Shown: positions 13,567 to 64,000 of the stretch, in pieces
Position numbering within the stretch: position 1 is the first letter of the stretch
Layout of the letters: each line of letters starts with the position of its first letter
NCBI GenBank assembly: GCA_045586785.1
Contig: JAZNBA010000072.1
Location: 59,197 to 123,196 of the forward strand
DNA from: Eubacteriales bacterium
GTDB taxonomy: Bacteria; Bacillota; Clostridia; Oscillospirales; CAG-272
Length of the DNA stretch: 64,000 bases
Reading direction: 5' to 3'
Notes under the pieces: generated by a model
What the model saw: only the letters and a program-made list of their open reading frames with translations
The model's database searches: none
Told to the model about the DNA's origin: nothing
Made by a program: the position numbers and the translations under genes

Positions 13567-13591
13567 TACGGCAATAGCACGTGTCCATACG

Positions 13592-13634: not shown

Positions 13635-13636
13635 AT

Positions 13637-37759: not shown

Positions 37760-37780
37760 TCGCTATTTCAAGAATATTAT

Positions 37781-39388: not shown

Positions 39389-39398
39389 GGACAAAACC

Positions 39399-39626: not shown

Positions 39627-39698
39627 TTATTGGTTCTATAAACACTAACCATACAAACACACATAACATTCATATAAAAAGAAATAGGAGAATGAACA

Positions 39699-40244: not shown

Positions 40245-40258
40245 AGGGAGGATATTAT

Positions 40259-40969: not shown

Positions 40970-41041
40970 ACGCTTTCACGTTGAATGTAGTGAAATCAAT
41001 TGAATTTCTACGAGGATTAATCAAAAAATAGATAGGTAAAT

Positions 41042-48559: not shown

Positions 48560-48563
48560 TGCT

Positions 48564-49331
48564 ATGAAAACAGCAATTATTACTGGCGCATCTTCCGGCG
48601 TTGGCACGGAATTTTTGAAAGTGCTTGTTCATGATAACAGCATCGAAGAATTTTGGATCATCGCAAGAAACGAAAAACGCCTTGAAGAATTAAAAGCACA
48701 ATATTCCAATAAAAGTATCGTTTGCATACCTCTTGATTTGACAAACGAAGAATCAATGCAGGTATATGAAAATCACCTCCGTGCAAAAAAGCCGGAGGTG
48801 GTGACCCTTGTTAATAATGCGGGATTTGGTATTTTAGGAGAGGTATATGGTTCGGATTATGTAGAGCAAGCGAAAATGGTAGATTTGAATTGTCGCGCTC
48901 TCACAACCATTACAACAATAACCTTGCCGTACATGACTGAAAATTCGGGAATCATCAATATGGCTTCTATTGCTGCATACTGCCCAAATCCGAATTTTAC
49001 GGTTTATTGTTCTGCCAAAGCATACGTATTGAGCTATTCTCGTTCATTGCGTTATGAACTGAGAATGAAAAAACGCAAGATCAATTCTCTTGCCGTTTGT
49101 CCCGGACCTATGAACACAAACTTTTGCGCTACTGCAGGAATCACAACACAGTTTGATGCCTTGCCGTTCACTGATCCTGCCAAAGTTGCTAAAACCGCTG
49201 TCAAGAAACTTCGTGAAGGAAAAGCCGTCTATACGCCCGGTGTATTCTTTAAATTTTATCGTTGTATTGCTAAATTACTTCCACACTCGCTTGTGATGGG
49301 ATTTAGCCAAACGATTAAAGATGGAAAATAA
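48564..49331 (+). CDS. short-chain dehydrogenase/reductase (SDR)
   Basis: Start at MKTAIITGASSGVGTEF (AAGGAG upstream). NNAG and YCSAKAY motifs. Confidence 0.85.
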   Translation: MKTAIITGASSGVGTEFLKVLVHDNSIEEFWIIARNEKRLEELKAQYSNKSIVCIPLDLTNEESMQVYENHLRAKKPEVVTLVNNAGFGILGEVYGSDYVEQAKMVDLNCRALTTITTITLPYMTENSGIINMASIAAYCPNPNFTVYCSAKAYVLSYSRSLRYELRMKKRKINSLAVCPGPMNTNFCATAGITTQFDALPFTDPAKVAKTAVKKLREGKAVYTPGVFFKFYRCIAKLLPHSLVMGFSQTIKDGK

Positions 49332-50481
49332 TGAATATATAGATACGAACAGAGCATGGGCTGAAATCGACATAACTAAAGCAAAGGAAAATTATTTTTC
49401 CATAAAGAAATGTCTTAAGCCCCAAACCCAAATATGCTGTGTAGTGAAAGCCAACGCCTACGGTCACGGCTCTGTTCGTATGGCTCAGTTATATGAGTCA
49501 CTTGGTGCAAATTACTTGGCTGTTGCTACGATTGAAGAAGCTCTGCAACTTCGTCAAGCCCCAATAAAGCTACCGATACTAATATTGGGATATACCGCAC
49601 CGCAATATGCAGATGTTCTATCCGATAACGATATTACACAGTGCGTATATTCATTAGACTACGGTCGAGCTTTGTCAAGTTGCGCTACAGAAAAAGGCAA
49701 ACCCGTAAAAGTACATATTAAAATTGATACGGGAATGGGTCGCATTGGATTTCGATACGTTGGCGGCGATGAGCAAGAATTAACAGATGCGCAAACTGTA
49801 TGCCGAATGCAAGGGTTGACTGTAGAAGGTATTTTTACTCACTTTTCGTCTGCTGATGATGAAATAGGTTCTGATGAAACAACAGAGCGACAGTATCAAT
49901 ACTTCTTAGAAGCAATTTCATATTTGGAAAAGCGAGGCATTCAATTTTCTATTCGCCACTGTTCCAATAGTGCTGCAATCCTTAAATATCCCCATACGCA
50001 GCTCGATATGGTACGTGCTGGTATTTCCTTGTATGGATTGGATGCTGATAATTTATTTTCATGTCAAACAAATCTGCATCAGATACTCCAACTAAAAACA
50101 ATAGTTAGCCATATAAAGCTAATCCATAAAGGAGATACTATTGGATACGGTCGGTAATATGTTGCAGAAAAGGACACAATTATCGCAACTCTTCCAATTG
50201 GATATGCGGATGGTCTGTGGAGAGCCAATTCGCGTCACGGAATGCTTGTGAATATTAACGGTGAGTACGCACCCATTATTGGACGAATTTGTATGGATCA
50301 ATGTATGATTGATGTCACAGCGTTGAAAGAAGTAAATGTCGGCGATATTGTTACGGTATATGGTGATAGTGAAATCAACTCAATAGATAAAATTGCAGCA
50401 ATAAACAAAACTATCAGCTATGAGATTGTTTGTAGTGTTAGCGAAAGAGTACCAAAATTTTATGTTAATAACGATTTGTGA
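49321..50481 (+). pseudogene. alr: alanine racemase interrupted by one in-frame TAA (50155-50157)
   Basis: VVKANAYGHG PLP-Lys motif. ...[33 protein letters not shown]... continues in the same frame (50242 minus 49321 is a multiple of 3). Confidence 0.8.
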
Positions 50482-51085
50482 TTTATCCTCGTATTCAGAT
50501 GAGCAATATCAAAATGACCTAACCACAATTCCAGTATGGCGAAGAGAAAAGGCATTGCAATACAAAAAGCTCGATGACCGCAAGCGTTCGGTCTTGGCTT
50601 TCGTGCTATTGCAGCGCGCTCTGCGTGATGAATATGGTATTACCGAGATTCCCGAATTTGTATATAACGAGTTCGGGAAACCCTCGTTGCTGAATCTGCC
50701 CATCCATTTCAGCTTGAGCCATTGTAAAGATGCCGTTGCTTGTGCCGTATCTGATCACAATATCGGTATCGACGTGGAAAGCATCGTGCCGTATAATCCC
50801 GATGTCGCTCGGAGAGTTTGCACGGCAGCAGAGCTTGAAATGCTTGAACAGAGTGATGACAAGGACGTGGAGTTCATCAAGCTTTGGACGGTTAAAGAAG
50901 CAATCTCAAAGTATGAGGGAATGGGATTGTCGTTGCCGTTTGCAGAGATTGATACGATGAATTACTTACTCTGCTCAAACGTAAGTGTTAATAGCAGATA
51001 TGTACTAAGTATTTGCTATGGAAAACGAACCGACACCCTTGCCCTTCCGCGCATCAAAATGCTATCCGCAACTGATTTAATATGA
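50462..51085 (+). CDS. Sfp-type 4'-phosphopantetheinyl transferase
   Basis: FSLSHCKDAVACAV..IGIDVE and KLWTVKEAISKYEG motifs. The start is uncertain (50420 or 50462) and overlaps the alr 3' end. Confidence 0.8.
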   Translation: MLITICDLSSYSDEQYQNDLTTIPVWRREKALQYKKLDDRKRSVLAFVLLQRALRDEYGITEIPEFVYNEFGKPSLLNLPIHFSLSHCKDAVACAVSDHNIGIDVESIVPYNPDVARRVCTAAELEMLEQSDDKDVEFIKLWTVKEAISKYEGMGLSLPFAEIDTMNYLLCSNVSVNSRYVLSICYGKRTDTLALPRIKMLSATDLI

Positions 51086-51185: not shown

Positions 51186-51224
51186 TCCAATACATACTGA
51201 AACATTATGTTTCTTGGAGGGTTT

Positions 51225-51839
51225 ATGAGAAGAAAAGACGAATCAAAAAAGAGTGTGATACTTGATTTCATCGACGAGTATTACAACGAATATAACGAGA
51301 TCCCTGCCGTAAGAACAATCGCAGAGGGCACGGGAATTGCTTTAGCAACCGTGCATCGTTATCTGCTGTCGCTCAAAGAAAGCGGCGAACTTGAATACAA
51401 CGGTCGCAAGTCGATCTCCACCAAGCGCATTGATTTGGAATCGCGTCACGCTTCTGCTCCCGTTCTCGGTTACGTCCGCTGCGGCGAAGGCGAAGAAGAA
51501 ACAGAGGAAGTCATCGAGTATATCCGTCTCCCCGAAAGCTTAGTTGGCACGGGAGAATTCTTTGTACTGATAGCAAAGGGTGATTCTATGGTGGATGCAG
51601 GCGTTAATGAGGGTGACTATGTCGTTATCCGAAAGCAGAATACCGCTAATGAAGGAGATTATGTTGTTGCACTATATGAGGGACTTAACAATCTGAAAGA
51701 GCTTGCACGTGGTGATAACGGCAGATACATTCTCCGATCTTGTAATGAGGATAAGGCGACCTATCCCGATATCTACCCAAACGATTTGAGAATACAAGGG
51801 GTAGCCGTTTGTGTAATGCATAAATTATTAAGGAGGTAA
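51225..51839 (+). CDS. LexA-like S24 peptidase repressor
   Basis: Winged-HTH N-terminus (RTIAEGTGIALATVHRYLLSLKESGELE). The GDSM serine and a Lys 37 residues later match the E. coli LexA S119/K156 spacing. Confidence 0.85.
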   Translation: MRRKDESKKSVILDFIDEYYNEYNEIPAVRTIAEGTGIALATVHRYLLSLKESGELEYNGRKSISTKRIDLESRHASAPVLGYVRCGEGEEETEEVIEYIRLPESLVGTGEFFVLIAKGDSMVDAGVNEGDYVVIRKQNTANEGDYVVALYEGLNNLKELARGDNGRYILRSCNEDKATYPDIYPNDLRIQGVAVCVMHKLLRR

Positions 51840-51845
51840 AAACTA

Positions 51846-52718
51846 TTGGCTGAAGAAAGAACTATTCAACAAAATGCGGATGAATTGGTCACCGCACTTG
51901 TAAATACAATCGGTAACGGATCTGTGCAGGAAGTAGTTGATAAGAATCGCGACGATGCGCTCGATATATCAAACATTGCGGTCAACCTTCCTCTCAAAGA
52001 AATGCCACCCGAAGTGGTAAAATATCTCAAAGACCTCGTACAAACCGTTAAAGGAACAAGTATGGATACACGCCACGATTTGAGCTTGGCATTCCCTCCC
52101 TCTCATTTTTCGGGCGAAGATAATCCGCTGATGCTTTTCTACAAAGCGTTTTACGACACCGTTACTTATTATACTACACTTATTCAAAGTGTTCCCGAGG
52201 TTCGCGACGCGCTGATAAGGGCAATGGCAGATAAGGGGTATAACGAGGATAATATCGATGAGTTTCTAAAGCGGGAGTGGGACATCAACGCCTATTTGAT
52301 GAACTTGCCTCAGATTGCGGAGATTTTCAAAGAGTTACCAGACTATTCCGATTACAACCACGGAAAGCCTAATAATTATTCTCTACAAAATGCGAAACGT
52401 AAAATTGAACATATGAGTGGCGGTCAACTTGTTGAGAAAGTATCAATTGAGCGTGGCGGTCCTAAGGATGCAAGCGGACAGTATACGCCCTATCCTTTGG
52501 ACGACGAAACCGACGTTACTACGGAAGTCATCGACAAAATATATCTTGAACAATGTCTTGCTCTGCTTTCACCCGAAGACCGTGAGCTCTTGGTACGTCA
52601 CGCCAACGGCGAAACTTATACCGCGCTTGCCAAAGACTACGGATATGCCAATGCAAGCGGTGTCAGAAAACGTATTGAGAGAATTAAAAAACAGATAACT
52701 AATGCATTTGCTGAATAG
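51846..52718 (+). CDS. sigma-70 region-4 / LuxR-type HTH domain protein with unknown N-terminal domain
   Basis: TTG start 9 nt after AAGGAGG. C-terminal LSPEDRELLVRHANGETYTALAKDYGYANASGVRKRIERIKKQI. No region 2 recognised. Confidence 0.55.
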   Translation: MAEERTIQQNADELVTALVNTIGNGSVQEVVDKNRDDALDISNIAVNLPLKEMPPEVVKYLKDLVQTVKGTSMDTRHDLSLAFPPSHFSGEDNPLMLFYKAFYDTVTYYTTLIQSVPEVRDALIRAMADKGYNEDNIDEFLKREWDINAYLMNLPQIAEIFKELPDYSDYNHGKPNNYSLQNAKRKIEHMSGGQLVEKVSIERGGPKDASGQYTPYPLDDETDVTTEVIDKIYLEQCLALLSPEDRELLVRHANGETYTALAKDYGYANASGVRKRIERIKKQITNAFAE

Positions 52719-52727
52719 GAGATAGAC

Positions 52728-53399
52728 ATGACAATTAATAGTATTAGTAGTGATGTAAAATTCCCGGATATGGAATTTTATAATATGAGCACCCCCGGTG
52801 AGATGGCATTATACCTTGCTCACTGTGATTTTTATCCATTCCAAAGCGTTTTGAGAAACAATCAACTTGCGTTAGATGCACTATCTCAAGGATATCGAGA
52901 AATGCTACAAAAGGCACAAGCCAGCGATGATTTTTACACAGAATCTTTTGCTATGACAAGTGGTACATTACACAATTCTCGTGTCAGTTTGCTAACTTAT
53001 TATTCGTTAGTTTTGACTATGGTGTCCATCTTGGAAGAATCAGTAAATACATTGTGTAGAGTATACTACAATATGCTAACGCTGAAAAAACAGCTTAGTG
53101 ATATAAAGGGGCGAGGATTAGAGCGTGCAGCAGAATACTTAAAAAAAGAAGTAGGCATTGAAGGTTTTACCTCAGACCCCCAATGGGAATATATTACAAC
53201 TATTCGTGATGCAAGAAATATGATTGTTCATAACGGCGGACGAGTAATCAAAGATTTTGATAAATTTGATAAATTCAAAATTGGATATAGAGAAGAAGAC
53301 CACCAATTATATTTTGAATACAGCGATATTGAAAAAATGTATAATGCCATTCTTGAATATATTGATAGAGCTTTTAGACTTGTTCCTACAAAAAAATAA
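52728..53399 (+). CDS. hypothetical protein, possible HEPN-type domain
   Basis: 223 aa with RBS AGGAG. Helical. ITTIRDARNMIVHNGG contains an R-x4-H motif in HEPN-like context. Confidence 0.4.
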   Translation: MTINSISSDVKFPDMEFYNMSTPGEMALYLAHCDFYPFQSVLRNNQLALDALSQGYREMLQKAQASDDFYTESFAMTSGTLHNSRVSLLTYYSLVLTMVSILEESVNTLCRVYYNMLTLKKQLSDIKGRGLERAAEYLKKEVGIEGFTSDPQWEYITTIRDARNMIVHNGGRVIKDFDKFDKFKIGYREEDHQLYFEYSDIEKMYNAILEYIDRAFRLVPTKK

Positions 53400-53400
53400 T

Positions 53401-53439
53401 TTTCGCACATTTGCGAGATTTTCATCACTGTGTTAAAAT
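53401..53439 (+). promoter_or_regulatory. promoter of the serine recombinase gene with conserved upstream motif
   Basis: TTTCGCACATTTGC overlapping -35 TTGCGA, then 17 nt, then TAAAAT (TG extended). Confidence 0.55.
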
Positions 53440-53460
53440 GAGAGCGAAAGGGGTGATTCT

Positions 53461-55350
53461 ATGACAGGCGTTATTTATGCACGATATTCCTCGGACAACC
53501 AACGCGAAGAATCGATAGAAGGTCAGCTTCGTGAATGCACGGCGTTTGCACAAAAGAACGATATAACGATCATTGAGCATTATATAGACAGAGCATATTC
53601 TGCCAAGACAGACAACCGTCCCGAGTTTCAAAGAATGATACGCGAGAGCGCGCGGAAAGCATATGATGTGGTAATCGTATGGAAACTTGACAGATTTTCG
53701 AGAAACCGTTTCGACTCTGCAAAATACAAAGCTGCATTGAAAAAGAACAAGATTCGCGTTATTTCCGCCACAGAAGCGATCTCCGATGGAGCAGAAGGTA
53801 TTATTCTTGAATCCGTGTTGGAAGGCATGGCAGAATACTATTCAGCAGATCTTTCGGAAAAGGTTACAAGAGGTCATACTGAAAACGCCCTCAAATGTCA
53901 GTTCAACGGCAGTGTTGTTCCTTACGGATACGTTATCGACAAGGAGAAGCATTATCAACTTGATCCCGAGAAAGCACCTATCGTTCTTGAAATCTTCAAA
54001 CGATACACAAGCGGCGAAACGATTACCGCTATTACAAAAGATCTTAATGCAAGGGGACTAAGAACAGCTAAAGGAAATGAATTCAACAAGAACAGCCTTC
54101 ACCATATGTTGAAAAATCGTAATTATATCGGTGAATATCGCTACAAGGATTTCGTTACACCCGGTGGAGTGCCTGCTATAGTTCCCGAGGATATCTTCAA
54201 TCGCGCGGTTTCCCTTATGGAAAGCAACAAACACGCGCCTGCGCGTAAGAAAGCCAAAGAGGATTACCTGCTAACAACCAAGCTTTTCTGCGGGAATTGC
54301 CTTGCTATGATGATTGGCGAAAGTGGTCAGAAAAGCAACGGGAATATTTATCGTTATTACAAATGCGCGGGTGCCAAGAAGCACGTTTGCGATAAGAAAA
54401 CCGTTCGCAAAGAATGGATAGAGGATATCGCGTTACAGTTAACGATGAAGATATTGATGAGCGATGAGGACCTTCAAAAGATCGCTGATAGAATTATGGA
54501 GCTTCAAAAGACAGAAAACATGATGATACCTGTGTTGGAACGTCAATTAGAGGCTGTCCGCGCTTCTATCGATAATATTCTTAAAGCCATTGAGATGGGT
54601 GTTTGCACTCGTTCAACCAAAACGCGCCTCGAAGAACTTGAGACGGAGGAAGAACGGATTAAGGGCGATATTTGCCGTGAGCAGTTGGATTCCCGACTTG
54701 TCACCGAAGATCAGATTTGGTATATCTTTGATAAATTCCGCCAAATGGATTTATCAATGCCCAAGCAACGCCAACGTCTGCTTGACAGTTTTCTGCAATC
54801 AATCGTTCTTTTTGATGATAAACTTATTATCTCGTTTAATTATCGTAGTCAACCCGTTACCATTATGCTCGATCAGTTGGTCGATTTTATTAACGGAAGC
54901 GGTTCGGATTTGGTAAGCGCTGCTTCACCAAAACAAAACAGGAGCACTTTGTGCTCCTGTTTTGTTTTGGTGACCCATGTTCGTCAAGACAAGCCCGCAA
55001 AATGCGCAGCATTTTGCAAATTGGCGCTTTGCGCCAATTTTTTCGATAGCCGCAATAGCGGCGTCCCGTACGGGCAGGAGCACAAAGTGCTCCTGTTTTG
55101 TTTTGATAACCCAGTCACCGAAGAAGAACCACACGTTGCCCGCCGAAGCGGTCAACTTACCGAGTTTTGCTTCGCAAAACATCGCCTCAATTTGCGAAGC
55201 AATTTCACAGCGTGTGCGCAGGGAAGAAGAACGCGTGCAGAGAATAATGGCGCACACGGCGGTTCAGATTCCCGTACGTGTCAGATCTGTGTCACTGTCA
55301 CAATCCAAAGATACCGCCGAAAGAGACCAAACGGTCACTCTCGGCGGTAA
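53461..55350 (+). CDS. large serine recombinase (3' end uncertain)
   Basis: VIYARYSSDNQREESIEGQ catalytic Ser region, DRFSRN, recombinase domain, Cys-rich zinc ribbon (CGNC...CAGAKKHVC), coiled coil. Recognisable similarity ends near nt 54915. The remaining ~140 codons run through palindromes and the att remnant. Confidence 0.8.
   Translation: MTGVIYARYSSDNQREESIEGQLRECTAFAQKNDITIIEHYIDRAYSAKTDNRPEFQRMIRESARKAYDVVIVWKLDRFSRNRFDSAKYKAALKKNKIRVISATEAISDGAEGIILESVLEGMAEYYSADLSEKVTRGHTENALKCQFNGSVVPYGYVIDKEKHYQLDPEKAPIVLEIFKRYTSGETITAITKDLNARGLRTAKGNEFNKNSLHHMLKNRNYIGEYRYKDFVTPGGVPAIVPEDIFNRAVSLMESNKHAPARKKAKEDYLLTTKLFCGNCLAMMIGESGQKSNGNIYRYYKCAGAKKHVCDKKTVRKEWIEDIALQLTMKILMSDEDLQKIADRIMELQKTENMMIPVLERQLEAVRASIDNILKAIEMGVCTRSTKTRLEELETEEERIKGDICREQLDSRLVTEDQIWYIFDKFRQMDLSMPKQRQRLLDSFLQSIVLFDDKLIISFNYRSQPVTIMLDQLVDFINGSGSDLVSAASPKQNRSTLCSCFVLVTHVRQDKPAKCAAFCKLALCANFFDSRNSGVPYGQEHKVLLFCFDNPVTEEEPHVARRSGQLTEFCFAKHRLNLRSNFTACAQGRRTRAENNGAHGGSDSRTCQICVTVTIQRYRRKRPNGHSRR
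54926..54972. repeat. perfect 22-bp-stem hairpin (47 nt)
   Basis: CACCAAAACAAAACAGGAGCAC-TTT-GTGCTCCTGTTTTGTTTTGGTG. Confidence 0.95.
54939..54977 (+). repeat. 39-nt direct repeat, copy 1
   Basis: CAGGAGCAC-TTT-GTGCTCCTGTTTTGTTTTGGTGACCCA. Confidence 0.85.
55075..55113 (+). repeat. 39-nt direct repeat, copy 2
   Basis: CAGGAGCAC-AAA-GTGCTCCTGTTTTGTTTTGATAACCCA. The loop is inverted and there are 2 mismatches. Confidence 0.85.
55255..55283 (+). repeat. attR-side remnant of the tRNA-Glu 3' half
   Basis: CACGGCGGTTCAGATTCCCGTACGTGTCA. The ungapped core GATTCCCGTACG(G/T)GTCA matches tRNA-Glu at 16/17. With a 9-nt gap, 27 of 29 nt align. Confidence 0.75.
55313..55348 (-). terminator. terminator of the ECF sigma operon
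   Basis: ACCGCCGA...TCGGCGGT stem with a T-run on the minus strand. Confidence 0.55.
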
Positions 55351-55356
55351 AACTGT

Positions 55357-56202
55357 TTATTCATAATCGCCCGGGTTTTCAGCGAATTTTTCCGCATCCT
55401 GTGCGTAATAATAGTCGTTTGCTGCCTCATTTGATGCATTGACTCTCTCTACCAATCCTTCTTCGTAGATGTCGGAATAAAGAAAATCCATTACTTCAAC
55501 TCGCCCGTATTTATAAAGACTTCCCTCGGTTTGGGGATATTCGAGAACGCAATCAATGGCGTAGAATCCAACTCCCGCACTGTCAAAGCATTTGCGTACT
55601 TCAAGAAGCATCTTTGCTAAACGATCTGCCGATACGGTATTATCGGCTATATACACGGTTAATTTTCCTGATTTTGATCCAAGCTCGTTTACATTGTAAT
55701 AGGCATCAAGTGTCAGCTCATCAGTTATGAGGGCATATTCCGGATAGTCTAATGCATCCTTGAACTCCATGGGAACAAATATAAGCTCACCGTATCCGAT
55801 ATGCGCGTTATATGGAAAAGCATTACTGTCAAATATGGTATCAACCGCTTTGCGATAATCTGCGCCGAGTCTGTCTGCGGTATTCCAGCCGTTTGTTACG
55901 CTGTTGTCATAATCATCATCCTGCAGCTTGCCAAATCCATTGATCAAAAGTGTAAAATGGGTGTCAATGCTGCTCGGAGATGATATATAAGCGTGATAAT
56001 AACAGTCTTTAAAGCTGTAGGTTACTCGTTCAAGCTCATAGTCTTTGTCGCCATACGTTTCTTTGATATATTTTTCGGCGGTATTTTGTGCCAATGCTTT
56101 GGATATAGGATTGCCGATAAGCGAGTTGGCAAACATACATACGCCTACGATCAGAGCAGCTGCTAAAATAAAGGCAGCTATTTTTAATATTTTTTTCTTC
56201 AT
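55357..56202 (-). CDS. membrane-anchored hypothetical protein (third gene of the ECF sigma operon)
   Basis: Start at MKKKILKIAAFILAAALIV. ATGA overlap with the anti-sigma stop. Confidence 0.6.
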   Translation of the reverse strand: MKKKILKIAAFILAAALIVGVCMFANSLIGNPISKALAQNTAEKYIKETYGDKDYELERVTYSFKDCYYHAYISSPSSIDTHFTLLINGFGKLQDDDYDNSVTNGWNTADRLGADYRKAVDTIFDSNAFPYNAHIGYGELIFVPMEFKDALDYPEYALITDELTLDAYYNVNELGSKSGKLTVYIADNTVSADRLAKMLLEVRKCFDSAGVGFYAIDCVLEYPQTEGSLYKYGRVEVMDFLYSDIYEEGLVERVNASNEAANDYYYAQDAEKFAENPGDYE

Positions 56203-56753
56203 TTGTTGTTCTCCTTTCTGAATGCAAAATGCAAAAGAAATGCGATTGCAATGCCTACAAGTACAAATATGCTGTAGATCAATGTCCACATAAGGGCAGA
56301 GTAAAAATCAAGCTCAACTAACTTGAACAGGCAAATAAACATATCAATAATCAAAAGAAGTATGGGCATCTTGTATATTGCTTTCCATCGGAATACGTAA
56401 TATCCGAATATGCCGACAACAGGCATAATCAAGCTGTTATACATCAGATTTTCTCCGCCCGTCCATCCAAATCCAAGAAAGATCAAAAATATTAGAGCTG
56501 AATAGGCGATCGAATAAAATTGTCTGTTCATTCGCTTCATCATTTTCTTGAAAGGCTTTGCGCTATCAGCGCTCGGCGCAGGGGTGTTTTCAATTGCCGT
56601 AAGACCTGCGCCATCTTTCAAATTTGTAAGTTCGACTTGACATTCGGAACAGTTTTCCAAATGCTTGCTTATATAATGTGCCGTTTGCTCGCTCACCATA
56701 TTCTCAACGTAAAGCGGAAGCAGGTCTCTGACAATGCTGCAATCATTTTTCAC
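56199..56753 (-). CDS. anti-sigma factor (zf-HC2 type) with transmembrane C-terminus
   Basis: GTG start at 56753. ...HLENCSECQ H-x3-C-x2-C zinc motif and 4 TM helices. 11-nt overlap with the sigma gene. Confidence 0.7.
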   Translation of the reverse strand: MKNDCSIVRDLLPLYVENMVSEQTAHYISKHLENCSECQVELTNLKDGAGLTAIENTPAPSADSAKPFKKMMKRMNRQFYSIAYSALIFLIFLGFGWTGGENLMYNSLIMPVVGIFGYYVFRWKAIYKMPILLLIIDMFICLFKLVELDFYSALMWTLIYSIFVLVGIAIAFLLHFAFRKENNK

Positions 56754-57246
56754 GGTTTTCTTCCTCCAATCTTTGTTTAATAATTTTTCGCGCTCGATGA
56801 TAGGTGACACAAGCCCAATTTTCGGTCTTGCCGAAGATATCGGCGATCTGCTTGAATGAGAGCTCTGCATATACTCGCCACATAAAAACTTCCTTGTACG
56901 GCTCGCTCACATCGTGCAGTATTTTTTGTATGCGCTCTATCTCATCTCGCTTAGCATATTCGTCAGCCACGCCCGGGGACCGATCGGGTATCTCCAGCAT
57001 TTCGGCTTTGTCAATGTGTTCCGTTCTGTTGCTTTTTTTTATGTATGAATAATAGCAGTTTTTGGCTATTTGACACAGCCAGACGCGCACGTCGCAATCA
57101 CCGCGAAAGCTATCGATGGACTTCATAGCTTTGAAAAAGGTATCGCTTGTTATTTCTTCGGCAATATGCTCGTTGCCCGAAAGCCGCAGAATATACAAAT
57201 AAACATCGTTGAAATATGTGGTGTACAGTTGCTCAAAATCCGTCAC
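56743..57246 (-). CDS. ECF-type RNA polymerase sigma factor
   Basis: 167 aa. GTG start after GGAGGTG. Region 2 (DVYLYILRLSGNEHIAEEITSDTFFKA) and region 4 (EVFMWRVYAELSFKQIADIFGKTENWACVTYHRARKII). Confidence 0.85.
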   Translation of the reverse strand: MTDFEQLYTTYFNDVYLYILRLSGNEHIAEEITSDTFFKAMKSIDSFRGDCDVRVWLCQIAKNCYYSYIKKSNRTEHIDKAEMLEIPDRSPGVADEYAKRDEIERIQKILHDVSEPYKEVFMWRVYAELSFKQIADIFGKTENWACVTYHRARKIIKQRLEEENREK

Positions 57247-57344
57247 TCTATCACCTCCTTCACCTATAAGACTCCGAAGAAAAGAAAATCTTACAAACTT
57301 TTTTATAATTATATCATATTTTTTTTAAAATTGCGTGAAAACAC

Positions 57345-57376
57345 GAAAAAAGGTGCCGCATAACGCAACACCTTTG
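57345..57376 (-). terminator. terminator of the radical SAM operon
   Basis: AAGGTG..GCG..CACCTT hairpin followed by a T-run on the minus strand. Confidence 0.6.
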
Positions 57377-57392: not shown

Positions 57393-58457
57393 TTACAGTA
57401 ATCCGCACTCAAAAAAAGCATTTTTAGTATCCGGTGCCTTGTAAGCTTGTTCGCTCCAGGGAAACCTTATTTCGTACAGCTTTGTTTCAAAGCTGATGCT
57501 GGGCAGCTTGTCAAGCATTGGCGCGGCAAAGTGATCCCGCGGCAGACCTATAACAAACATACCGTATCTTTTGGCGATCTCGCGCTTGATCTCGTTGAGA
57601 AAAACGCGGTAATAATATTCGCTGTCGTCTTGGCATATGAAAAACGCAAGCATCGGGAACTCAAGCGGTTTATTTTGCTTTGGAAGCTTGATATAGCCAA
57701 GCGCGGACAGCAAGGGATTGAAAACACGCGCGAGCTTCATGATGCTTCCGTACCTTTTTACAATATACTGCTTATAATCTGTTTGGTTCCAGAGAGCGGC
57801 GGCGGCGACGATGCTTGCGCCGTCTTTGAGCAGATAAAAGTCTTGTGTCTTGAGGCCATGAAACTGCTCGATAGAACGGACAACAGGGAACATATCTCTT
57901 TTTTTGCCCTCGGCATTCAAAAAATCGATAAGTTCTACGGTGTCGTCTTGCGTTGCCCGGCGGAACGTAAGGCTGTTCTTGGGTGTTTTTATTTTGACAG
58001 CAGGATTTATGATATATGTTTTGTATCCGGATATAGGGGTCATGGAGATCACTCGGCGGCTGCTTTCAAACATTTTCTGTGCGTCAACATTGTCGGACAC
58101 AACAGAGCAGTAATAAAAGTCAACTCCGTCCTGCTGCAGGTCGCGTATAAAGCCGGCGCCAAATCCAACGCCGCCCTCATATGCCGCATCCTTTTTAAGA
58201 CCGCATACGTATGCCGCGCGGCACGCTTCGCCGCCGATATATACCTCTCGCACAATCTTAGCGCAGGTGCCTACAGTCCTGCCTTGCTTTTTTGAAACAA
58301 AGACCGTAGTCTGTCCGTCCTCTTTCATATAAGATTCATACGCATCGGGGCGGCGTGTGTATATCAGCTCTATTTGCCCTTTGGCGGCAGAGCTTTCGAG
58401 TATGCGCAGTATTTCTGCACCGTCCTCTTGTGTGGCGTGATATTTTGACGTGATCAT
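57393..58457 (-). CDS. two-lobed GNAT-fold-like acyltransferase candidate (function unknown)
   Basis: 354 aa. Size and alternating beta/alpha pattern suggest a tandem GNAT. ATGA overlap with the upstream radical SAM gene. Weak call. Confidence 0.35.
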   Translation of the reverse strand: MITSKYHATQEDGAEILRILESSAAKGQIELIYTRRPDAYESYMKEDGQTTVFVSKKQGRTVGTCAKIVREVYIGGEACRAAYVCGLKKDAAYEGGVGFGAGFIRDLQQDGVDFYYCSVVSDNVDAQKMFESSRRVISMTPISGYKTYIINPAVKIKTPKNSLTFRRATQDDTVELIDFLNAEGKKRDMFPVVRSIEQFHGLKTQDFYLLKDGASIVAAAALWNQTDYKQYIVKRYGSIMKLARVFNPLLSALGYIKLPKQNKPLEFPMLAFFICQDDSEYYYRVFLNEIKREIAKRYGMFVIGLPRDHFAAPMLDKLPSISFETKLYEIRFPWSEQAYKAPDTKNAFFECGLL

Positions 58458-59794
58458 TTTTTGTTTTCTTCGAGGTTTTCGCCTATGGGTATGCCGGCAC
58501 GTTTGTCAACTTCAAAGTGAAAAAGGATGTTTATGAACCAATATGCCAGATTTATCATAAAACGGCGGGAGCGCTTAAACATAGTTCTTCCGCGCTTGAA
58601 GATAGAACCGAAACGGAAAAATTCTTTTTTGTATTGCTTACAGAAGATACGCAGCGATTCAGGGGTCAACTGTTTGGGCGTGAAGGTGATGGTACCGAAG
58701 GTGTAGCCGCTCTCAAGCCACCAGTTTTCCGAAATAAGGCGTTCGTCTGCCTTGAAGGCGTCATATGTCTTGGTGTTAGGGAAGATCAGAAGGTGGTTGA
58801 ACGCTACGACAAAGAATTGATGCTTTTGGCAAAATTCAAGTGTTGCCTTGAAGGTGTCCTCGTTGTCAGAGTCAAAACCGAAAACAAAACTTGCGTAAAT
58901 GCCGATACCTGCGTCATGTATCTTGCTGATAAGTGCGTCTCGCTCGCCGAGGCGTTCCGTCCAGCCCTTGTTCATCTGTTTCAGGTTGTCACTCTCAATA
59001 GATTCAAAGCCGATGAGCACCATTTCACAGCCGCTTTCTTTCATAAGACGCAGCATTTCTTCATCTCTGGCGATGTCAAGCGTGATCTGGGTCGTCCATA
59101 TGATGTTGATCTTTTTCAGCTCCCGGAAAAGCTCACGCGCAAATGCCTTGTCCGAGAATATGCTGTCGTCCACAAAGAAAAATATCTTGTGGTTACAAGC
59201 CTTGATCTCGGCGATAATGTCCGAAACCTCGCGGTGTATGTAGTGCTGATGATAATAGCCCGCAATGGAGCAAAACTCGCAGTTGTGATAACAGCCGCGC
59301 CCCGTTTCCACAAGAGATACGGGAAGATACTTTTTTATTTTATCGGCGTAAATGCTTCTGTCCGGCATTTTGTAAGCAATGCAAGCACCGCCGTCATAAC
59401 GCTTTTTTAAAGTGTCTGACTCAAGGTCGGCAAGCACTGAGGCGATGAGGCGATCGGCATTGCCCACCATAATGGAGTCGGCATGTTCCATTGCTTCTTC
59501 GGGACAGAGCGTGACGTGATAGCCGCCCATAATGACTTTTTTACCGCGCTTCTGAAATTCCGACGCGATAAAATAAGCTCGCTTGGCGGTGTATGTTTCC
59601 ACTGTTATAAAAACAATATCTGTTTCAGTGTCATAATTGATGCGTTCGATTCTGTCGTCATAAAACTCTCGCTCAAACTTATCGGGGATCATGGAGTTGA
59701 GTACAGCGATGGTGAGCGGCTCCATAAGCCAGCTTCGCAGGTATTTTTGTCCCGCCTTTTTGCCGATCGCGGGAAGTATAAAGGTTATTTTCAT
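58454..59794 (-). CDS. B12-binding domain radical SAM protein (paralog 1)
   Basis: 446 aa. N-terminal Rossmann-like B12 domain (VIMGGYHVTLCPEE), GCYHNCEFC cluster motif, C-terminal helical (DUF4070-like) tail. Confidence 0.8.
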   Translation of the reverse strand: MKITFILPAIGKKAGQKYLRSWLMEPLTIAVLNSMIPDKFEREFYDDRIERINYDTETDIVFITVETYTAKRAYFIASEFQKRGKKVIMGGYHVTLCPEEAMEHADSIMVGNADRLIASVLADLESDTLKKRYDGGACIAYKMPDRSIYADKIKKYLPVSLVETGRGCYHNCEFCSIAGYYHQHYIHREVSDIIAEIKACNHKIFFFVDDSIFSDKAFARELFRELKKINIIWTTQITLDIARDEEMLRLMKESGCEMVLIGFESIESDNLKQMNKGWTERLGERDALISKIHDAGIGIYASFVFGFDSDNEDTFKATLEFCQKHQFFVVAFNHLLIFPNTKTYDAFKADERLISENWWLESGYTFGTITFTPKQLTPESLRIFCKQYKKEFFRFGSIFKRGRTMFKRSRRFMINLAYWFINILFHFEVDKRAGIPIGENLEENKK

Positions 59795-61149
59795 TCAATT
59801 TCTCCTTCGTCCTTTTCCCGACAGCCGAAGGTCATTCCTTGTTTTTCGAACACCTCTCTGCGGAATACGGGATTGTAGATTATATATGTGAAAAAACGAA
59901 TCGGATTGCGTAAATTGGTTCGTGGCTCAAACAGTCGATATATTACCGACGAGATGCTGTTAAAATGTTTTCTGCAGTAATATGCCGCTTCGGTAAGCTG
60001 GGGGGCGGTCATGTTGGACGGCACGAATGCGGCGTAATTGAAGCGGTATTCGGGATGCAACCACCATTTTCCGTCGTAAAGCAAACGTCCCTCTGCCGCC
60101 AGTTGATCATAGAGCGCCGTTCCGGGGTAGGGCATCAGAATGTTGTATGCCGAGAAACAGAATTTGTTTTTCAGCGCAAACTTATAGGTTGCTTTGATGC
60201 TTTCGGGTGTATCGGTGTCATGTCCTACGGTGAATGCAGCCCATGTTTGCAGTCCGTATTTTCTCAGCTTTTTTATGGCGTCCTTATACTGATCCTGCAC
60301 AAATTTTTTGTTTACGCCCTTGCCCATGGTATTTATGCTGTCCGCTCTGATAGATTCAAATCCTATGACATGTCCCAAGCATCCGCTTTTGACCATAAGT
60401 TTCATTAGTTCATCGTCTTCCAGCATATCGATACTGCCTTGACTTACCCATTTTATTTTTAGCGGTATCAGTCTTTTAAACAGCTCTTTGGCCTTTTGCT
60501 TGTTTCCGACAATATTGTCATCAACAAAAAATATCAGCTTTCTTTTCTGGCTGCGTATTTCGCTGATCACCTCGTCTATATCACGGCAAAAATGCTTTTG
60601 CTTGAAATAAACACTTGAGGCGCAGTATTTGCAGCTGTAACGGCAGCCGCGGCTGAACTGCATGAGTGTTATCGGCATATATTTTTTGCCTTCAAATATA
60701 TCTCGGCGTGTTATTACGCCTTTTTGCGGAATCAAGACAGGATCGCAATGATATTCCGATTTCAGCTTGCCTTGGCGGACATCCTCGATCATCTCGCCCC
60801 ATTTATCCTCGGCATCACCTATCATGATGCTGTCGCAGTGTTGCTTTACTTCCTCGGGAATAAGCGTAACATGCATTCCGCCCATTATGACCTGTCTGCC
60901 GCGCTTTCTGTATTCTTCGCTTATTTCATACGCGCGTCGAGCTGTAAAAGTCTCTACCGTGATGGCAACAAGATCGGTCGGTTCGTCGTAGGGGATAGAC
61001 TCCAATCTGTCATCATACATTACGACGTCTACATCGGACGGCGTGAGTGCGGCAAGTATTCCAAGCTGTAACGGCTCCATGCTGGCATTGTCAACATAAA
61101 GACTGTGCTCACGTCTTCCTATATTTGGCTTTATCAGTGTTATCTTCAT
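59791..61149 (-). CDS. B12-binding domain radical SAM protein (paralog 2)
   Basis: Start at MKITLIKPNIG (ATGA overlap with paralog 3 stop). VIMGGMHVTLIPEE and GCRYSCKYC. Confidence 0.8.
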   Translation of the reverse strand: MKITLIKPNIGRREHSLYVDNASMEPLQLGILAALTPSDVDVVMYDDRLESIPYDEPTDLVAITVETFTARRAYEISEEYRKRGRQVIMGGMHVTLIPEEVKQHCDSIMIGDAEDKWGEMIEDVRQGKLKSEYHCDPVLIPQKGVITRRDIFEGKKYMPITLMQFSRGCRYSCKYCASSVYFKQKHFCRDIDEVISEIRSQKRKLIFFVDDNIVGNKQKAKELFKRLIPLKIKWVSQGSIDMLEDDELMKLMVKSGCLGHVIGFESIRADSINTMGKGVNKKFVQDQYKDAIKKLRKYGLQTWAAFTVGHDTDTPESIKATYKFALKNKFCFSAYNILMPYPGTALYDQLAAEGRLLYDGKWWLHPEYRFNYAAFVPSNMTAPQLTEAAYYCRKHFNSISSVIYRLFEPRTNLRNPIRFFTYIIYNPVFRREVFEKQGMTFGCREKDEGEIE

Positions 61150-62486
61150 GATGTGGCTCCCGTGCATTTTTGATCGTTGTGATCTTCACCGCCAAGCACC
61201 TTGTCCTGCTTGCGATGAATCTCTTTTCTTGAAATAAGATTAAGTGCTAAAAACATAATGGCGTTAAATGGGGACAGATGAATTCGGTTGCCAAAAAGAC
61301 GCTTGAAAATATTTTTATACGAATTAAAGCTGAAGCGCGCGTTTTTGCATCCTCCATAAAGATCGCGGGGTGTCATATTTTCGGGATAAAACACCGTGTC
61401 TCCGTATCTGTAGCCCGGCTCCAGCCACCATTTTTCATAGATGAGCTTGTTTTGCGCTTTAAGCCTTTCGTATAGCGCAGTGTCGGGAAAGGGAATAAGA
61501 GGATTGAAGTTTGCCACCGCAAAATTATGCTTCAATGCGAATTCCAGCGTTTCGTCTATTGAGCGGCGCGTGTCGTGATCATAGCCAAGCACAAAGGTGG
61601 CGTAGATCATAAGACCGTGACGGTATATATTTTGTATCGCTTTTTCATATGTCTCAATGCGCAAATTGGCGCGTTTGTTCATAAGCTTGAGATTATCGGG
61701 ATCTAAGGATTCAAAGCCTATCAGAACAAGAACACAGCCGCTTTTTTTCATAGCTGTCAGAAGGGTATCGTTCATCGCTACGTCCATGCTTATCTGACAC
61801 GCCCACTTCTTTTTGAGCGGTCTTATGGCATCAAACAAAGCAAGCGCCGAGGCTTCATTCAAAAAAATGTTGTCGTCAATGAAAAACAGTATTTTTTCTT
61901 TTATTCCGCGTATTTCTTCAACGACGGTCTGTATGTCCTTTTGACGCACACCGCATTTGTAAAATTGACTTATCGAGCAAAAATCACAGTGAAATTTGCA
62001 TCCTCTTGAAAACTGAACAAGTCCGATGGCGTTATATTTTTTGCCGCGGAAGGCGGGGCTGTTAAAATCAAGACGCAGAAGAGACTGCTTGTGCGACGAC
62101 ATGTATTTTCGTTTTGGAGCAGATTGCTTCAAGTCCGCGAGATACTCGGGCCACGTATCCTCGGCGTCGCCGATCAGCACGGTATCGCAGTGCTCCAACG
62201 CTTCCTCAGGCAATGCCGTTGGGTGAAATCCGCCCATTACAATTTGGTTGTTGGGAGTCTTATACTTCTTCGCCAGGTCATATGCGTGCTTGGCGGCAAA
62301 TGTTTCGACTGACAGCGCGATCACGTCCGAGTCAATGATATCGGGCAGTGTCTCAATGCGCTCGTCAAAGTATTCTACGGTTACATCCGAGGGGGTGACA
62401 GCATGAAATACCGCAAAGATCAGCGGTTTCATTGCGTCACTTCCTTTGCCCTCGAGCATACTGACTTTAATTAACGTAACTTTCAT
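61146..62486 (-). CDS. B12-binding domain radical SAM protein (paralog 3)
   Basis: 446 aa. IVMGGFHPTALPEE and GCKFHCDFC. Confidence 0.8.
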   Translation of the reverse strand: MKVTLIKVSMLEGKGSDAMKPLIFAVFHAVTPSDVTVEYFDERIETLPDIIDSDVIALSVETFAAKHAYDLAKKYKTPNNQIVMGGFHPTALPEEALEHCDTVLIGDAEDTWPEYLADLKQSAPKRKYMSSHKQSLLRLDFNSPAFRGKKYNAIGLVQFSRGCKFHCDFCSISQFYKCGVRQKDIQTVVEEIRGIKEKILFFIDDNIFLNEASALALFDAIRPLKKKWACQISMDVAMNDTLLTAMKKSGCVLVLIGFESLDPDNLKLMNKRANLRIETYEKAIQNIYRHGLMIYATFVLGYDHDTRRSIDETLEFALKHNFAVANFNPLIPFPDTALYERLKAQNKLIYEKWWLEPGYRYGDTVFYPENMTPRDLYGGCKNARFSFNSYKNIFKRLFGNRIHLSPFNAIMFLALNLISRKEIHRKQDKVLGGEDHNDQKCTGATS

Positions 62487-62487
62487 T

Positions 62488-63777
62488 TTATTCTACCCCA
62501 AGGTATTTAAAGCCCAGGTTTGCGCCCAGACATATGAATTTCTCGCGGAGACTTTGGTTGGGTGTGTTTTTGACGCGCTTGAATATGTTTTTAAAGGAAT
62601 ACGTTTGCTTCCAGACGGTCCTGTATATCTGATCAAGGCGCTGAGGCGGCATGTTTTGCGGCATAAACACTGTTTCGTGTTGGTTATATTTTGACCAATC
62701 CCGTGTTATGATGCGCCCCTCGTCCTCCAGACGTCGGAATAGCGGTGAGTTGGGCACAGGCGTAAGAATGGCAAATCTTGCAAGATTCAAGTTAAGATAA
62801 TTGATCTGTTCGGGCAAAGATAACAGCTCCTGCTCGGTATCACCGTCCATCCCGAGAATAAAGCAGCCGTTTACGCTTATGCCGTAGCTTTGCATTATGG
62901 CAATGGCTTGCTTGTAGTTGCTTGGATCGTTGAAGCCTTTGTTTGATGTATCAAGTGTATTTCGATTCATTGATTCAAGACCGACCAGCAGTCCCGCACA
63001 ACCGCTTTGCTGTGCGGCGCGCATCAATTCTTGGTCAAATGCCGAGGCTATCGTGGCAGACCCTACCCACCGTATATTCAGCTTGGCAAGCTGCTTCATA
63101 AGAGCTATGGAATATTCGCGGTCACCGAAAAAGTTAGGGTCAAAAAAGACCAGCATACGAGTATTCAGAGCTTTGATCTCATTTATAACGTTTTCAACAG
63201 GACGGGCACTGCAAGTTCTCCACATTTTGCTTATAGCGCAAAATTCGCAATTATTCGGACAGCCTCGATTTGCGATAACGGCAGGATATTTCAGATATTT
63301 TTTGCGAGGTATGGCGCGTCTGTCGGGCGGTACTATATCAGCGCCGTTTACGTGCTGTCGGTCGTAAAGCGGCTTTGGACAGCCGGCGGCGAAATCCTTC
63401 AAAAACTGCGGCCATGAGTACTCTGCCGCGCCCACTATCACGGTGTCAGCATGCTGCGCTGCTTCCTCGGGCATATGAGTGGGATGGTATCCGCCCATGA
63501 CAATATACGAACCCTGCTGCCTGAAATGTTGTGCTATTTTGTATGCTCTCGGCGCGTTTGATGTCAACACGCTGAGCGCGACGATGTCGTATTTCTGATG
63601 TTTCAGCGGATAATTACCCTGTATTTCGTCGTATGTATCAACACTTGCGTCGATTTCTTGCGGAATCAACGCAAGCAGTGTAGCCAACGTCAGCGGAGCA
63701 TATGTTATAAGACCCGATAGCCGCGCGCGATAGCTTTTGTCATCGGCGTGCCACGGCTGTAATAATAAAATCTTCAT
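62488..63777 (-). CDS. B12-binding domain radical SAM protein (paralog 4)
   Basis: Start at MKILLLQPWHADD (GGAG upstream). IVMGGYHPTHMPEE and GCPNNCEFC. Confidence 0.8.
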   Translation of the reverse strand: MKILLLQPWHADDKSYRARLSGLITYAPLTLATLLALIPQEIDASVDTYDEIQGNYPLKHQKYDIVALSVLTSNAPRAYKIAQHFRQQGSYIVMGGYHPTHMPEEAAQHADTVIVGAAEYSWPQFLKDFAAGCPKPLYDRQHVNGADIVPPDRRAIPRKKYLKYPAVIANRGCPNNCEFCAISKMWRTCSARPVENVINEIKALNTRMLVFFDPNFFGDREYSIALMKQLAKLNIRWVGSATIASAFDQELMRAAQQSGCAGLLVGLESMNRNTLDTSNKGFNDPSNYKQAIAIMQSYGISVNGCFILGMDGDTEQELLSLPEQINYLNLNLARFAILTPVPNSPLFRRLEDEGRIITRDWSKYNQHETVFMPQNMPPQRLDQIYRTVWKQTYSFKNIFKRVKNTPNQSLREKFICLGANLGFKYLGVE

Positions 63778-63796
63778 AATAGCGACTCCGGATGTG

Positions 63797-64000
63797 TTAT
63801 ACTGTAGGGATATCCGAATTGTCCGACATAACGTCGGCGCCGAATATCTCAAATTCCTTTGCGTATTTCCTGTAACCAATATTAACTAACATATAGATGC
63901 TTTTGACGGTCTTTGGCTTGGTAAGGTCAAGACGCTTCCAAATGTTTTTCCACGAATAGGTTTGCTTCCATGCCCACGCAATTCCTGCTTCAAGCTGTTC
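63797..64000 (-). CDS. B12-binding radical SAM protein (paralog 5), 3' fragment entering from beyond the window
   Basis: My translation of the minus strand gives ...WAWKQTYSWKNIWKRLDLTKPKTVKSIYMLVNIGYRKYAKEF...PTV-stop. This aligns with the C-terminus of paralog 4 (VWKQTYSFKNIFKRVKNTP...). Confidence 0.65.
   Translation of the reverse strand, partial: EQLEAGIAWAWKQTYSWKNIWKRLDLTKPKTVKSIYMLVNIGYRKYAKEFEIFGADVMSDNSDIPTV

Follow-up and report, generated by a model that had tools for sequence, protein, structure and literature searches.

The operon at the end of the window

The stretch of DNA described here, 64,000 nucleotides (nt) of contig JAZNBA010000072.1 from a Eubacteriales bacterium (the window), ends inside an operon of cobalamin (B12)-binding, or class B, radical S-adenosylmethionine (SAM) enzymes. 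The operon is on the minus strand and its portion within the window spans positions 57393-64000, where it is truncated by the window's edge. Five of the genes encode radical SAM proteins (rSAMs) that are paralogs of one another. They are followed by the gene of a protein with two consecutive GNAT (GCN5-related N-acetyltransferase) lobes, here called GNATL, and by a terminator. In the order of transcription the features are:

63797..64000, minus strand: 3' end (67 codons and the stop codon) of the gene for the operon's first rSAM, which belongs to orthogroup A; the translation is identical to the C-terminus of the 445-residue rSAM A of a related locus, L012
62488..63777, minus strand: rSAM orthogroup B, 429 residues from MKILLLQ, with B12-binding, Radical_SAM and DUF4070 domains (Pfam, orthogroup clustering)
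61146..62486, minus strand: rSAM orthogroup C, 446 residues (Pfam, orthogroup clustering)
59791..61149, minus strand: rSAM orthogroup D, 452 residues from MKITLIK (Pfam, orthogroup clustering)
58454..59794, minus strand: rSAM orthogroup E, 446 residues, the gene immediately upstream of GNATL (Pfam, orthogroup clustering)
57393..58457, minus strand: GNATL, the 354-residue tandem-GNAT protein (AlphaFold2 model, Foldseek, homologs)
57339..57375, minus strand: intrinsic terminator with a 12-bp stem, a 3-nt loop and a T-run (hairpin found in the sequence)

The C-terminal 67 residues of the fifth paralog, encoded by the last 204 nt of the window, finish ...WKQTYSWKNIWKRL...PTV before the stop codon, and the fragment ends with the tail WKQTYSWKNIWKR. 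At three of the junctions the genes overlap by 4 nt (ATGA), and at the remaining two they are separated by 1 nt and 19 nt. The terminator, with its stem at 57375-57349, begins 18 nt past the GNATL stop codon. A first-pass annotation, made from the letters of the window, had proposed this arrangement, and the list of open reading frames (ORFs) bears out its coordinates, its strand, the ATGA overlaps and the gaps of 1-19 nt. Four complete genes and one partial gene for paralogous class B rSAMs are also what the Pfam domains and a MAFFT alignment give. The last gene had been taken for a two-lobed acyltransferase and structure prediction returned a tandem-GNAT fold; the terminator is present, with its stem and T-run; and the suggestion that the operon runs on past position 64000 is supported by the partial rSAM A gene and by the gene order in relatives. 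The exact sequences of three window proteins have no record in the public protein index, and homologs were used instead.

The radical SAM enzymes

All four complete rSAMs contain a Radical_SAM domain (PF04055), which scores 54.7-67.3 bits in Pfam at a cut-off of 29.5. The B12-binding domain (PF02310, cut-off 32.1) is recognized in B (37.2 bits) and C (36.1 bits), and is just under the cut-off in D (29.9 bits) and E (26.7 bits). The N-termini of D and E align in register with those of B and C and keep the GG.H.T..P.E block. A cobalamin-binding Rossmann domain at the N-terminus is thus recognized in B and C and is probable in D and E. The window paralogs share 30-38% pairwise identity in the MAFFT alignment, in which the cluster cysteines C172, C176 and C179 and the GG.H.T..P.E block are invariant. 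The CxxxCxxC motif is kept in all 125 rSAMs from 43 related loci. Both the cysteine motif and the B12-type Rossmann block that the first-pass annotation had read in the paralogs therefore stand in a proper alignment, with all cysteines present.

No paralog falls into a family of known function. None of the window rSAMs attains any equivalog or subfamily cut-off in NCBIfam, the best scores being 80-103 bits against cut-offs of 251-775, with several unrelated families scoring alike. Assignments to HpnJ, BchE, PhpK, HpnR, BzaD, TsrM or QCMT/MJ_0865 were rejected on these scores, and the proteins are also under the NCBIfam cut-offs for the ladderane-type lipid rSAM, ApyD, KedN5 and AprD4. The top NCBIfam match of rSAM D is the PhpK family, far under the cut-off. 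The closest solved structure is that of QCMT, the glutamine C-methyltransferase of methyl-coenzyme M reductase (9CCB, E = 1e-6 to 1e-10). Class B rSAMs also perform reactions other than methylation, such as ring contraction, cyclization and C-S bond formation. A role in anti-phage defense was considered and rejected: in PADLOC the candidate model PDC-M51A is matched by the rSAMs only weakly and generically (20-34 bits), and GNATL and the permease described below have no match to any defense model.

The tandem acyltransferase

GNATL has no match in Pfam or NCBIfam, and a profile search of the PDB sequences gave nothing significant, whereas some of its homologs carry a precomputed PF13527 match. 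The AlphaFold2 model of the protein, with a predicted local distance difference test (pLDDT) score of 86.4 and a predicted template-modeling score (pTM) of 0.87, consists of two consecutive GNAT lobes. Foldseek aligns it to tandem GNATs at a probability of 1.0, with template-modeling (TM) scores of 0.5-0.62 over 320-400 aligned columns. The neighbors are Eis-like proteins (3N7Z, 2I00), MAB_4324 (7Q3A), a glucosamine (GlcN) N-acetyltransferase (5KF2) and N-myristoyltransferase (NMT). Although GNATL has the same two-lobed fold as these N-acyltransferases, it is only 9-15% identical to them, has motifs of its own and is genomically tied to B12 rSAMs. GNATL is predicted to be the N-acyltransferase of the pathway.

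The 247 GNATL homologs found include no other name than 'hypothetical protein', and the hosts named are metagenome-assembled genomes (MAGs) of Clostridia, Oscillospiraceae and Ruminococcaceae. At E <= 1e-3 the family comprises 2166 clusters at 50% identity. GNATL thus appears to found a large undescribed family, absent from Pfam and NCBIfam. The family motifs are LESSAAKG, CGLKKD, LWNQTxYKQY and ECGLL. A G-x-G-x-G stretch (GGVGFGAG) that follows β-4 of the N-terminal lobe, recognized by eye, is a candidate for the loop binding the pyrophosphate of acyl-CoA. The last of the motifs forms the C-terminus, which is E-C-G-L-L in the window and is kept as E-C/L-G/A-x-L-COOH down to 26-30% identity. 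NMT uses its C-terminal carboxylate as the catalytic base. Because the extreme C-terminus of GNATL is invariant, as in NMT, the analogy suggests that its carboxylate is catalytic in the same way. Membership of GNATL in the NMT family itself was rejected, because there is no NMT match in Pfam and the identity in structural alignments is 8-11%; the likeness is confined to the fold and the C-terminus.

The gene of rSAM E is invariably next to that of GNATL and translationally coupled to it, and the two proteins are an obligate pair. In P0260 (817 residues) a B12 rSAM is joined to GNATL in one polypeptide; at 386 bits to E and 382 bits to D, its rSAM part is about equally close to the two. Four other proteins of about 720 residues (P0165, P0206, P0220 and P0224) are fusions of an ATP-grasp enzyme with GNATL. 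Such natural 'Rosetta-stone' fusions argue for a functional coupling of GNATL both with the rSAM and with ATP-grasp enzymes.

The upstream part of the operon

Ninety-odd related loci were compared in all. The contexts of the relatives come from the gene tables of three homolog contigs and from 46 species-representative loci mapped by BLAST and by their ORFs, which were called by a simple longest-ORF script; some gene starts are approximate. One gene order recurs in 46 species-level genomes and in 42 metagenome contigs, and for this reason the order of the operon is not due to chance. In 40-odd genomes the recurring unit starts with a 382-residue permease of the Trp_Tyr_perm (HAAAP) type, continues with 2-5 B12 rSAMs and ends with GNATL.

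The locus most similar to the window, L012, belongs to a MAG of another assembly and carries exactly five rSAMs, the same set A-B-C-D-E. Its first rSAM ends in the same tail as the fragment at the window's edge. The window DNA is 96-99% identical to L012 from position 64000 to about 59800 (genes A-D), the identity being 96-98% over the rSAM A fragment. The A-D proteins are 98-99% identical overall (98% for rSAM B). Because of this near-identity and the shared tail of rSAM A, the full operon of the window is almost certainly made of seven genes, permease-A-B-C-D-E-GNATL, with the permease and the rest of A outside the window. The similarity to L012 ends abruptly inside the operon:

59700..59900, no strand: recombination breakpoint at the rSAM D/E junction (DNA identity comparison with L012)

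Past the breakpoint the identity falls to about 84% over the next 200 nt; further on, E has about 75% and GNATL about 70%. The flanks of the two cassettes are unrelated. The window operon is thus a mosaic, and the comparison implies that a recent recombination swapped either the E-GNATL module or the A-D module.

The permease of L012 matches Trp_Tyr_perm (PF03222) with 45.3 bits at a cut-off of 22. The best NCBIfam model for the permease is the aromatic amino acid transporter TIGR00837, at 26-64 bits against a cut-off of 350. The protein is thus probably a distant member of the HAAAP family, the homology being too remote to assign a substrate or a direction of transport. Boxes resembling TTGACA and TATAAT lie 30-45 nt 5' of the permease start in most related loci, so that a putative sigma-70 promoter with a short leader precedes the gene in the relatives. 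A scan of seven related loci with Rfam found no riboswitch, T-box or other RNA element upstream of the operon.

Modularity of the cassette

The 125 rSAMs of the 43 loci were grouped by average-linkage clustering at 45% identity. They fall into six orthogroups, A, B, B', C, D and E, with 60-83% identity within an orthogroup and 29-41% between them, and split deeply into two clades, {A, B, B'} and {C, D, E}. A and E are the core: the gene of A invariably comes next after that of the permease, and the gene of E closes the rSAM series just ahead of GNATL. The other four orthogroups (B, B', C and D) are optional modules, swapped between lineages. The architectures found are A-E (nine loci), A-B'-E (13), A-C-D-E (four), A-B'-C-E (two) and A-B-C-D-E (five and the window). 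rSAM B occurs only in the five-rSAM cassettes. Two loci, L032 (364-2591) and L035 (1377-3650), have no rSAM gene at all and the permease gene is directly followed by that of GNATL, which suggests that permease and GNATL are a functional unit by themselves.

A, C, D and E can be recognized in candidate division KSB3 and in other lineages, and the paralogs must therefore have diverged long ago; rSAM D is highly conserved, being 63% identical between KSB3 and gut Clostridia. The cassette types are polyphyletic on the GNATL tree. For instance, the GNATL of L012, which has five rSAMs, is 83% identical to that of L019, which has three. Decaying fragments of B and B' were seen among the related loci. 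Gain and loss of distinct orthogroups around a fixed core is the pattern that would be expected of site-specific tailoring enzymes. The first-pass annotation had proposed multi-site chemistry on one substrate, and this idea is strengthened by six ancient orthogroups that come and go as modules, while falling short of proof.

Carriers of the cassette are found in Clostridia, Bacilli, Spirochaetia, KSB3 and a MAG of Deltaproteobacteria. Of the gene families and ORFs (25 residues or longer) that flank the 43 loci, none is common to more than six of them, and the cassette is therefore self-contained and mobile. Near-identical tRNA genes are located about 0.1-3.2 kb downstream of GNATL, on the opposite strand, in L005, L008, L019, L024 and L033; in L008, L019 and L024 the distance is within about 0.5 kb. 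This hints that the cassette is often situated at tRNA-associated integration sites. The window has a pair of tRNA genes at 29600-29748 on the plus strand, 28 kb from the operon.

Environmental relatives

Relatives from environmental bacteria were reached through P0150 and its homologs, through a scan of metagenomes, and through homologs of a 235-residue protein, X235. Their core is rSAM E - GNATL - X235 - GH3, where GH3 is an acyl-acid amido synthetase, with A, B', C and D added in varying numbers. The slot upstream of rSAM A holds either the permease or GH3 and X235 (compare L079 with L080, and L046 with L047 and L048). The permease and the GH3-X235 pair are thus alternative modules.

X235, identified in L053, L052 and L046, represents a very large unannotated family with about 4800 database matches. 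Its AlphaFold2 model has a single GNAT fold (pLDDT 94). Though X235 and GNATL both have GNAT folds, X235 was rejected as a half-copy of GNATL, the hhalign probability being 0.2%. The X235 gene is next to a GH3-family synthetase in most loci examined. The rSAM cassette seems to be far less widely spread than this pair, which may be a two-enzyme module, as yet undescribed, for forming amides. The GH3 proteins of the cassettes match the NCBIfam model of OlsH at 54-65 bits, the cut-off being 620. OlsH, the only characterized bacterial GH3 enzyme, makes N-acyl ornithine from a free fatty acid with ATP, and the authors of that study propose that other bacterial GH3 enzymes form other N-acyl amino acids (PMC12493201).

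Other partners are less regular. A small ABC (ATP-binding cassette) ATPase follows GH3 in three environmental loci and is the sole recurrent gene beyond GH3 and X235. Two environmental clusters are flanked by genes for FA_desaturase, PAP2, ceramidase-like and RND/MMPL proteins. L048, from a MAG of Bacilli, adds ATP-grasp, AMP-binding and zinc-ribbon genes. In the Butyrivibrio loci L044 (11035-12609) and L045 (9296-10870) an ABC-F gene overlaps the GNATL stop codon, and its product just passes the NCBIfam cut-off for 'ribosomal protection-like ABC-F' proteins (388 against 380 bits). The gene was found in none of the other cassette loci. It may confer self-resistance, suggesting a ribosome-targeting product in that lineage.

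The proposed pathway

The explanation favored here, to which we give slightly less than an even chance, is that the pathway N-acylates an amine derived from an amino acid and decorates it by 2-5 radical steps, the product being an N-acyl amino acid that would class with the aminolipids or lipoamino acids. In gut bacteria, the HAAAP-type permease would bring in an amino-acid-like substrate. Because GH3 and X235 occupy the slot of the permease, the relatives outside the gut probably make, by means of these two enzymes, what the gut bacteria import. GNATL would then N-acylate the primary amine of the substrate from acyl-CoA or acyl-ACP (acyl carrier protein), its base probably being the invariant C-terminal carboxylate, as in NMT. 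Each rSAM orthogroup would be responsible for a single radical reaction, specific to one site, at an unactivated carbon; most likely this is a cobalamin-mediated C-methylation. Cassettes with 2, 3, 4 and 5 rSAMs would thus yield a graded series of products, and the window cassette, having five, would make the most heavily decorated one.

Several observations weigh against this explanation. The permease is far under the trusted cut-off of every characterized transporter (26-64 bits against 350). The link between GH3 and lipids is made by one characterized enzyme and by weak scores (54-65 bits against 620), and the window's own cassette has no GH3. The lipid genes in the neighborhood come from two loci only, and those two are probably related. 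The ATP-grasp and AMP-binding partners and the ABC-F of Butyrivibrio suit a soluble peptide-like or ribosome-targeting product equally well. Finally, since class B rSAMs are not confined to methylation, the chemistry of {A, B, B'} may differ from that of {C, D, E}.

On a wider scale, the cassette would define a phylogenetically broad and undescribed class of rSAM-decorated N-acyl amino acid metabolites, lipids or signals, in which the number and position of the C-alkyl groups is set combinatorially by the orthogroups carried, and for which Clostridia of herbivore guts have swapped the synthesis of the precursor (GH3 and the single GNAT) for import. This generalization is doubtful and is offered tentatively.

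Alternative explanations

A lipid-like N-acyl amino acid is the leading guess for the product and a soluble peptide-like metabolite is its serious rival, even if we judge the latter unlikely. The same architecture would in that case yield a water-soluble compound of the amino-acid or dipeptide type (an antimetabolite, antibiotic or compatible solute), and the N-acylation would be an acetylation that perhaps serves self-protection or creates the substrate of the rSAMs. Phosphinothricin biosynthesis follows such an order, N-acetylation coming before P-methylation by PhpK, and PhpK is the family that rSAM D matches best, albeit far under the cut-off. The operon's first gene, for a permease of the amino-acid type, suits a soluble product, as do the ATP-grasp-GNATL fusions, the ATP-grasp and AMP-binding genes in L048, and the Eis-like and GlcN N-acetyltransferases among the fold neighbors of GNATL, which acetylate small amines. 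The ribosomal protection-like ABC-F, translationally coupled to GNATL in two Butyrivibrio loci, points the same way; however, it is confined to that lineage, just as the accessory ligases are lineage-specific. Furthermore, the gut cassettes have no export gene, and the precedent of OlsH together with the neighboring lipid genes favors a fatty-acyl conjugate.

Should the substrate be a ribosomally made, post-translationally modified peptide (RiPP), the rSAMs would C-methylate a peptide encoded elsewhere, or in an unrecognized small ORF, and GNATL would acylate its N-terminus. C-methylation by several rSAMs is classic RiPP chemistry, bottromycin and polytheonamide being made in this way. Peptide N-termini are acylated by the microviridin acetyltransferase and by NMT, and there are NMT-like proteins among the fold neighbors of GNATL. 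The rSAMs have weak NCBIfam matches to the RiPP models ApyD and rSAM_ocin_1, and the ATP-grasp partners recall graspetides. However, the 3-kb flanks of the 43 loci contain no conserved ORF of at least 25 residues (short divergent peptides elsewhere are possible), the gaps of 0-19 nt inside the operons leave no room for a small gene, and the cassette, which occupies unrelated genomic contexts, includes no protease, no protein of the RiPP recognition element (RRE) type and no peptide exporter. The conserved amino-acid-type permease gene at the head of the operon, taken together with the lack of a conserved precursor peptide, points away from a RiPP and towards a small substrate derived from an amino acid. 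This alternative is accordingly given little credence.

Slightly less credible still is a scheme in which the rSAMs modify a bulk component of the cell, either the acyl chains of membrane lipids or a cofactor (the lower ligand of a corrinoid, or a quinone), while the permease and the GNAT are separate in function and merely linked. HpnJ, HpnR, the ladderane-type lipid rSAM, BchE and BzaD are among the best sub-threshold NCBIfam matches, and unusual lipids are a known trait of Butyrivibrio and related bacteria. Yet all these scores are far under the cut-offs. rSAM E and GNATL are encoded side by side in every case, with translational coupling, and are sometimes even a single polypeptide, and the promoter is 5' of the permease gene, with the whole unit moving together. 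Least probable of all is catabolism or salvage, with radical chemistry serving to rearrange or break down an imported gut compound. An operon headed by a transporter gene is typical of catabolism, and the gut cassettes have an importer in place of the biosynthetic GH3 and X235. However, to our knowledge no class B rSAM has a catabolic role of this kind, the operon has no downstream dehydrogenase, lyase or energy-conserving enzyme, and the ATP-dependent synthetases of the environmental relatives indicate anabolism.

Comparison with known systems

Full-text searches of the literature found no description of the cassette. The enzymes belong to known superfamilies, whereas the cassette as a unit, its combinatorial sets of paralogs, the GNATL and X235 families and their link to GH3 appear undescribed.

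ThnK, ThnL and ThnP of carbapenem biosynthesis and BotRMT1-3 of bottromycin biosynthesis are tailoring sets of several class B rSAM paralogs. Like the cassette, they consist of cobalamin-dependent rSAMs that are encoded together and have an N-terminal cobalamin-binding domain followed by the rSAM core, an arrangement known as the 'class I' architecture (PMC12931638). In the Thn and Bot sets each enzyme acts at a different position of the scaffold. Unlike these sets, the cassette has no non-ribosomal peptide synthetase (NRPS), β-lactam or precursor-peptide genes, its only partners being the permease and the tandem GNAT, and the number of its paralogs varies naturally from 0 to 5.

AblA and AblB make N-ε-acetyl-β-lysine, while Pat and PhpK take part in phosphinothricin biosynthesis; AblA is not B12-dependent. 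Both pairs combine a radical SAM step with N-acylation by a GNAT on one small molecule derived from an amino acid, as is proposed for the cassette. However, they lack multiple paralogs, a dedicated permease and a tandem GNAT, and no membership of the window proteins in these families was found at the sequence level.

The planctomycete ornithine-lipid pathway of OlsH and OlsI (PMC12493201) resembles the cassette in that the GH3 of the environmental relatives matches the OlsH model and an N-acyl amino acid would be a fitting product. In contrast, the window cassette has no GH3, and neither OlsI (an α/β hydrolase) nor OlsG is present. No match to OlsB, OlsA or OlsI was obtained in any of the Pfam and NCBIfam scans made of the proteins of the cassette and its relatives. 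Membership in a known aminolipid pathway (OlsBA, OlsF or OlsH/OlsI) was rejected, since the window is devoid of GH3 and the GH3 proteins of the relatives score 54-65 bits against 620. The word 'radical' does not occur in the text of a review of aminolipids (PMC12971839).

Other features of the window

The largest neighboring system is a biosynthetic cluster:

35789-51085, plus strand: cluster of the NRPS type, converging on the rSAM operon from 6-9 kb (domain content)

Its parts include an HD-domain protein, a stand-alone AMP-binding enzyme (37781-39388), a short-chain dehydrogenase/reductase (48522-49331) and an ORF resembling a phosphopantetheinyl transferase (50420-51085). The NRPS itself (41042-48559) has 2505 residues and Condensation, AMP-binding, PP-binding and terminal NAD_binding_4 reductase domains. 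A link between this cluster and the rSAM operon was rejected, because the cluster is common to no related locus, and a recombinase block and a pair of sigma and anti-sigma genes lie between the two. According to the translations only, a gene resembling that of alanine racemase is split into two ORFs on the plus strand (49321-50157 and 50242-50481), which could be due to a frameshift, to decay into a pseudogene or to an error in sequencing.

A block similar to a mobile element (51207-55366) separates the NRPS cluster from the sigma and anti-sigma genes. It encodes a LexA/S24-like repressor, two unannotated proteins of 290 and 223 residues, and a large serine recombinase with Resolvase, Recombinase and Zn_ribbon_recom domains. 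The recombinase ORF overruns the usual end of such proteins by roughly at least 100 residues, into a region at about 54925-55366 that has long ORFs on both strands. Just downstream of the operon's terminator, and on the minus strand, an extracytoplasmic function (ECF)-type sigma factor (56743-57246) and a putative anti-sigma factor with a zinc-finger motif (56199-56870) were recognized by eye. The putative anti-sigma gene is followed by that of a YfjL_N-domain protein (55357-56289, minus strand). Elsewhere in the window, a tetrahydrofolate (THF) riboswitch (13468-13566, plus strand, 84.5 bits) is situated upstream of the ORF 13493-14236 / 14158-15510.

Significance

Few large enzyme families are as poorly understood as the class B rSAMs, most of which have no known substrate. 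The cassette is a compact and portable unit that combines up to five distinct rSAM orthogroups with just a transporter and one acyltransferase, and it has sister cassettes with 0, 2, 3 and 4 rSAMs. The system is unusually clean, in that a comparison of products could assign one reaction to each rSAM; if the proposed pathway is true, it is also a natural series of 0, 2, 3, 4 and 5 enzymes for studying the site selectivity of class B rSAMs. The GNATL family counts over 2000 clusters at 50% identity and is associated across phyla with B12 rSAMs, GH3 synthetases and ATP-grasp ligases. Were the product an aminolipid, the modification would be the first by a radical SAM enzyme in that class of lipids.

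The permease-type cassettes are carried by uncultured bacteria of the gut and rumen. Their product, costly in both SAM and B12 and built on an imported precursor, could be a lipid of the membrane, and would then bear on methyl-branched lipid biomarkers. Alternatively, it could be a bioactive N-acyl amide that acts on neighboring microbes or on the host.

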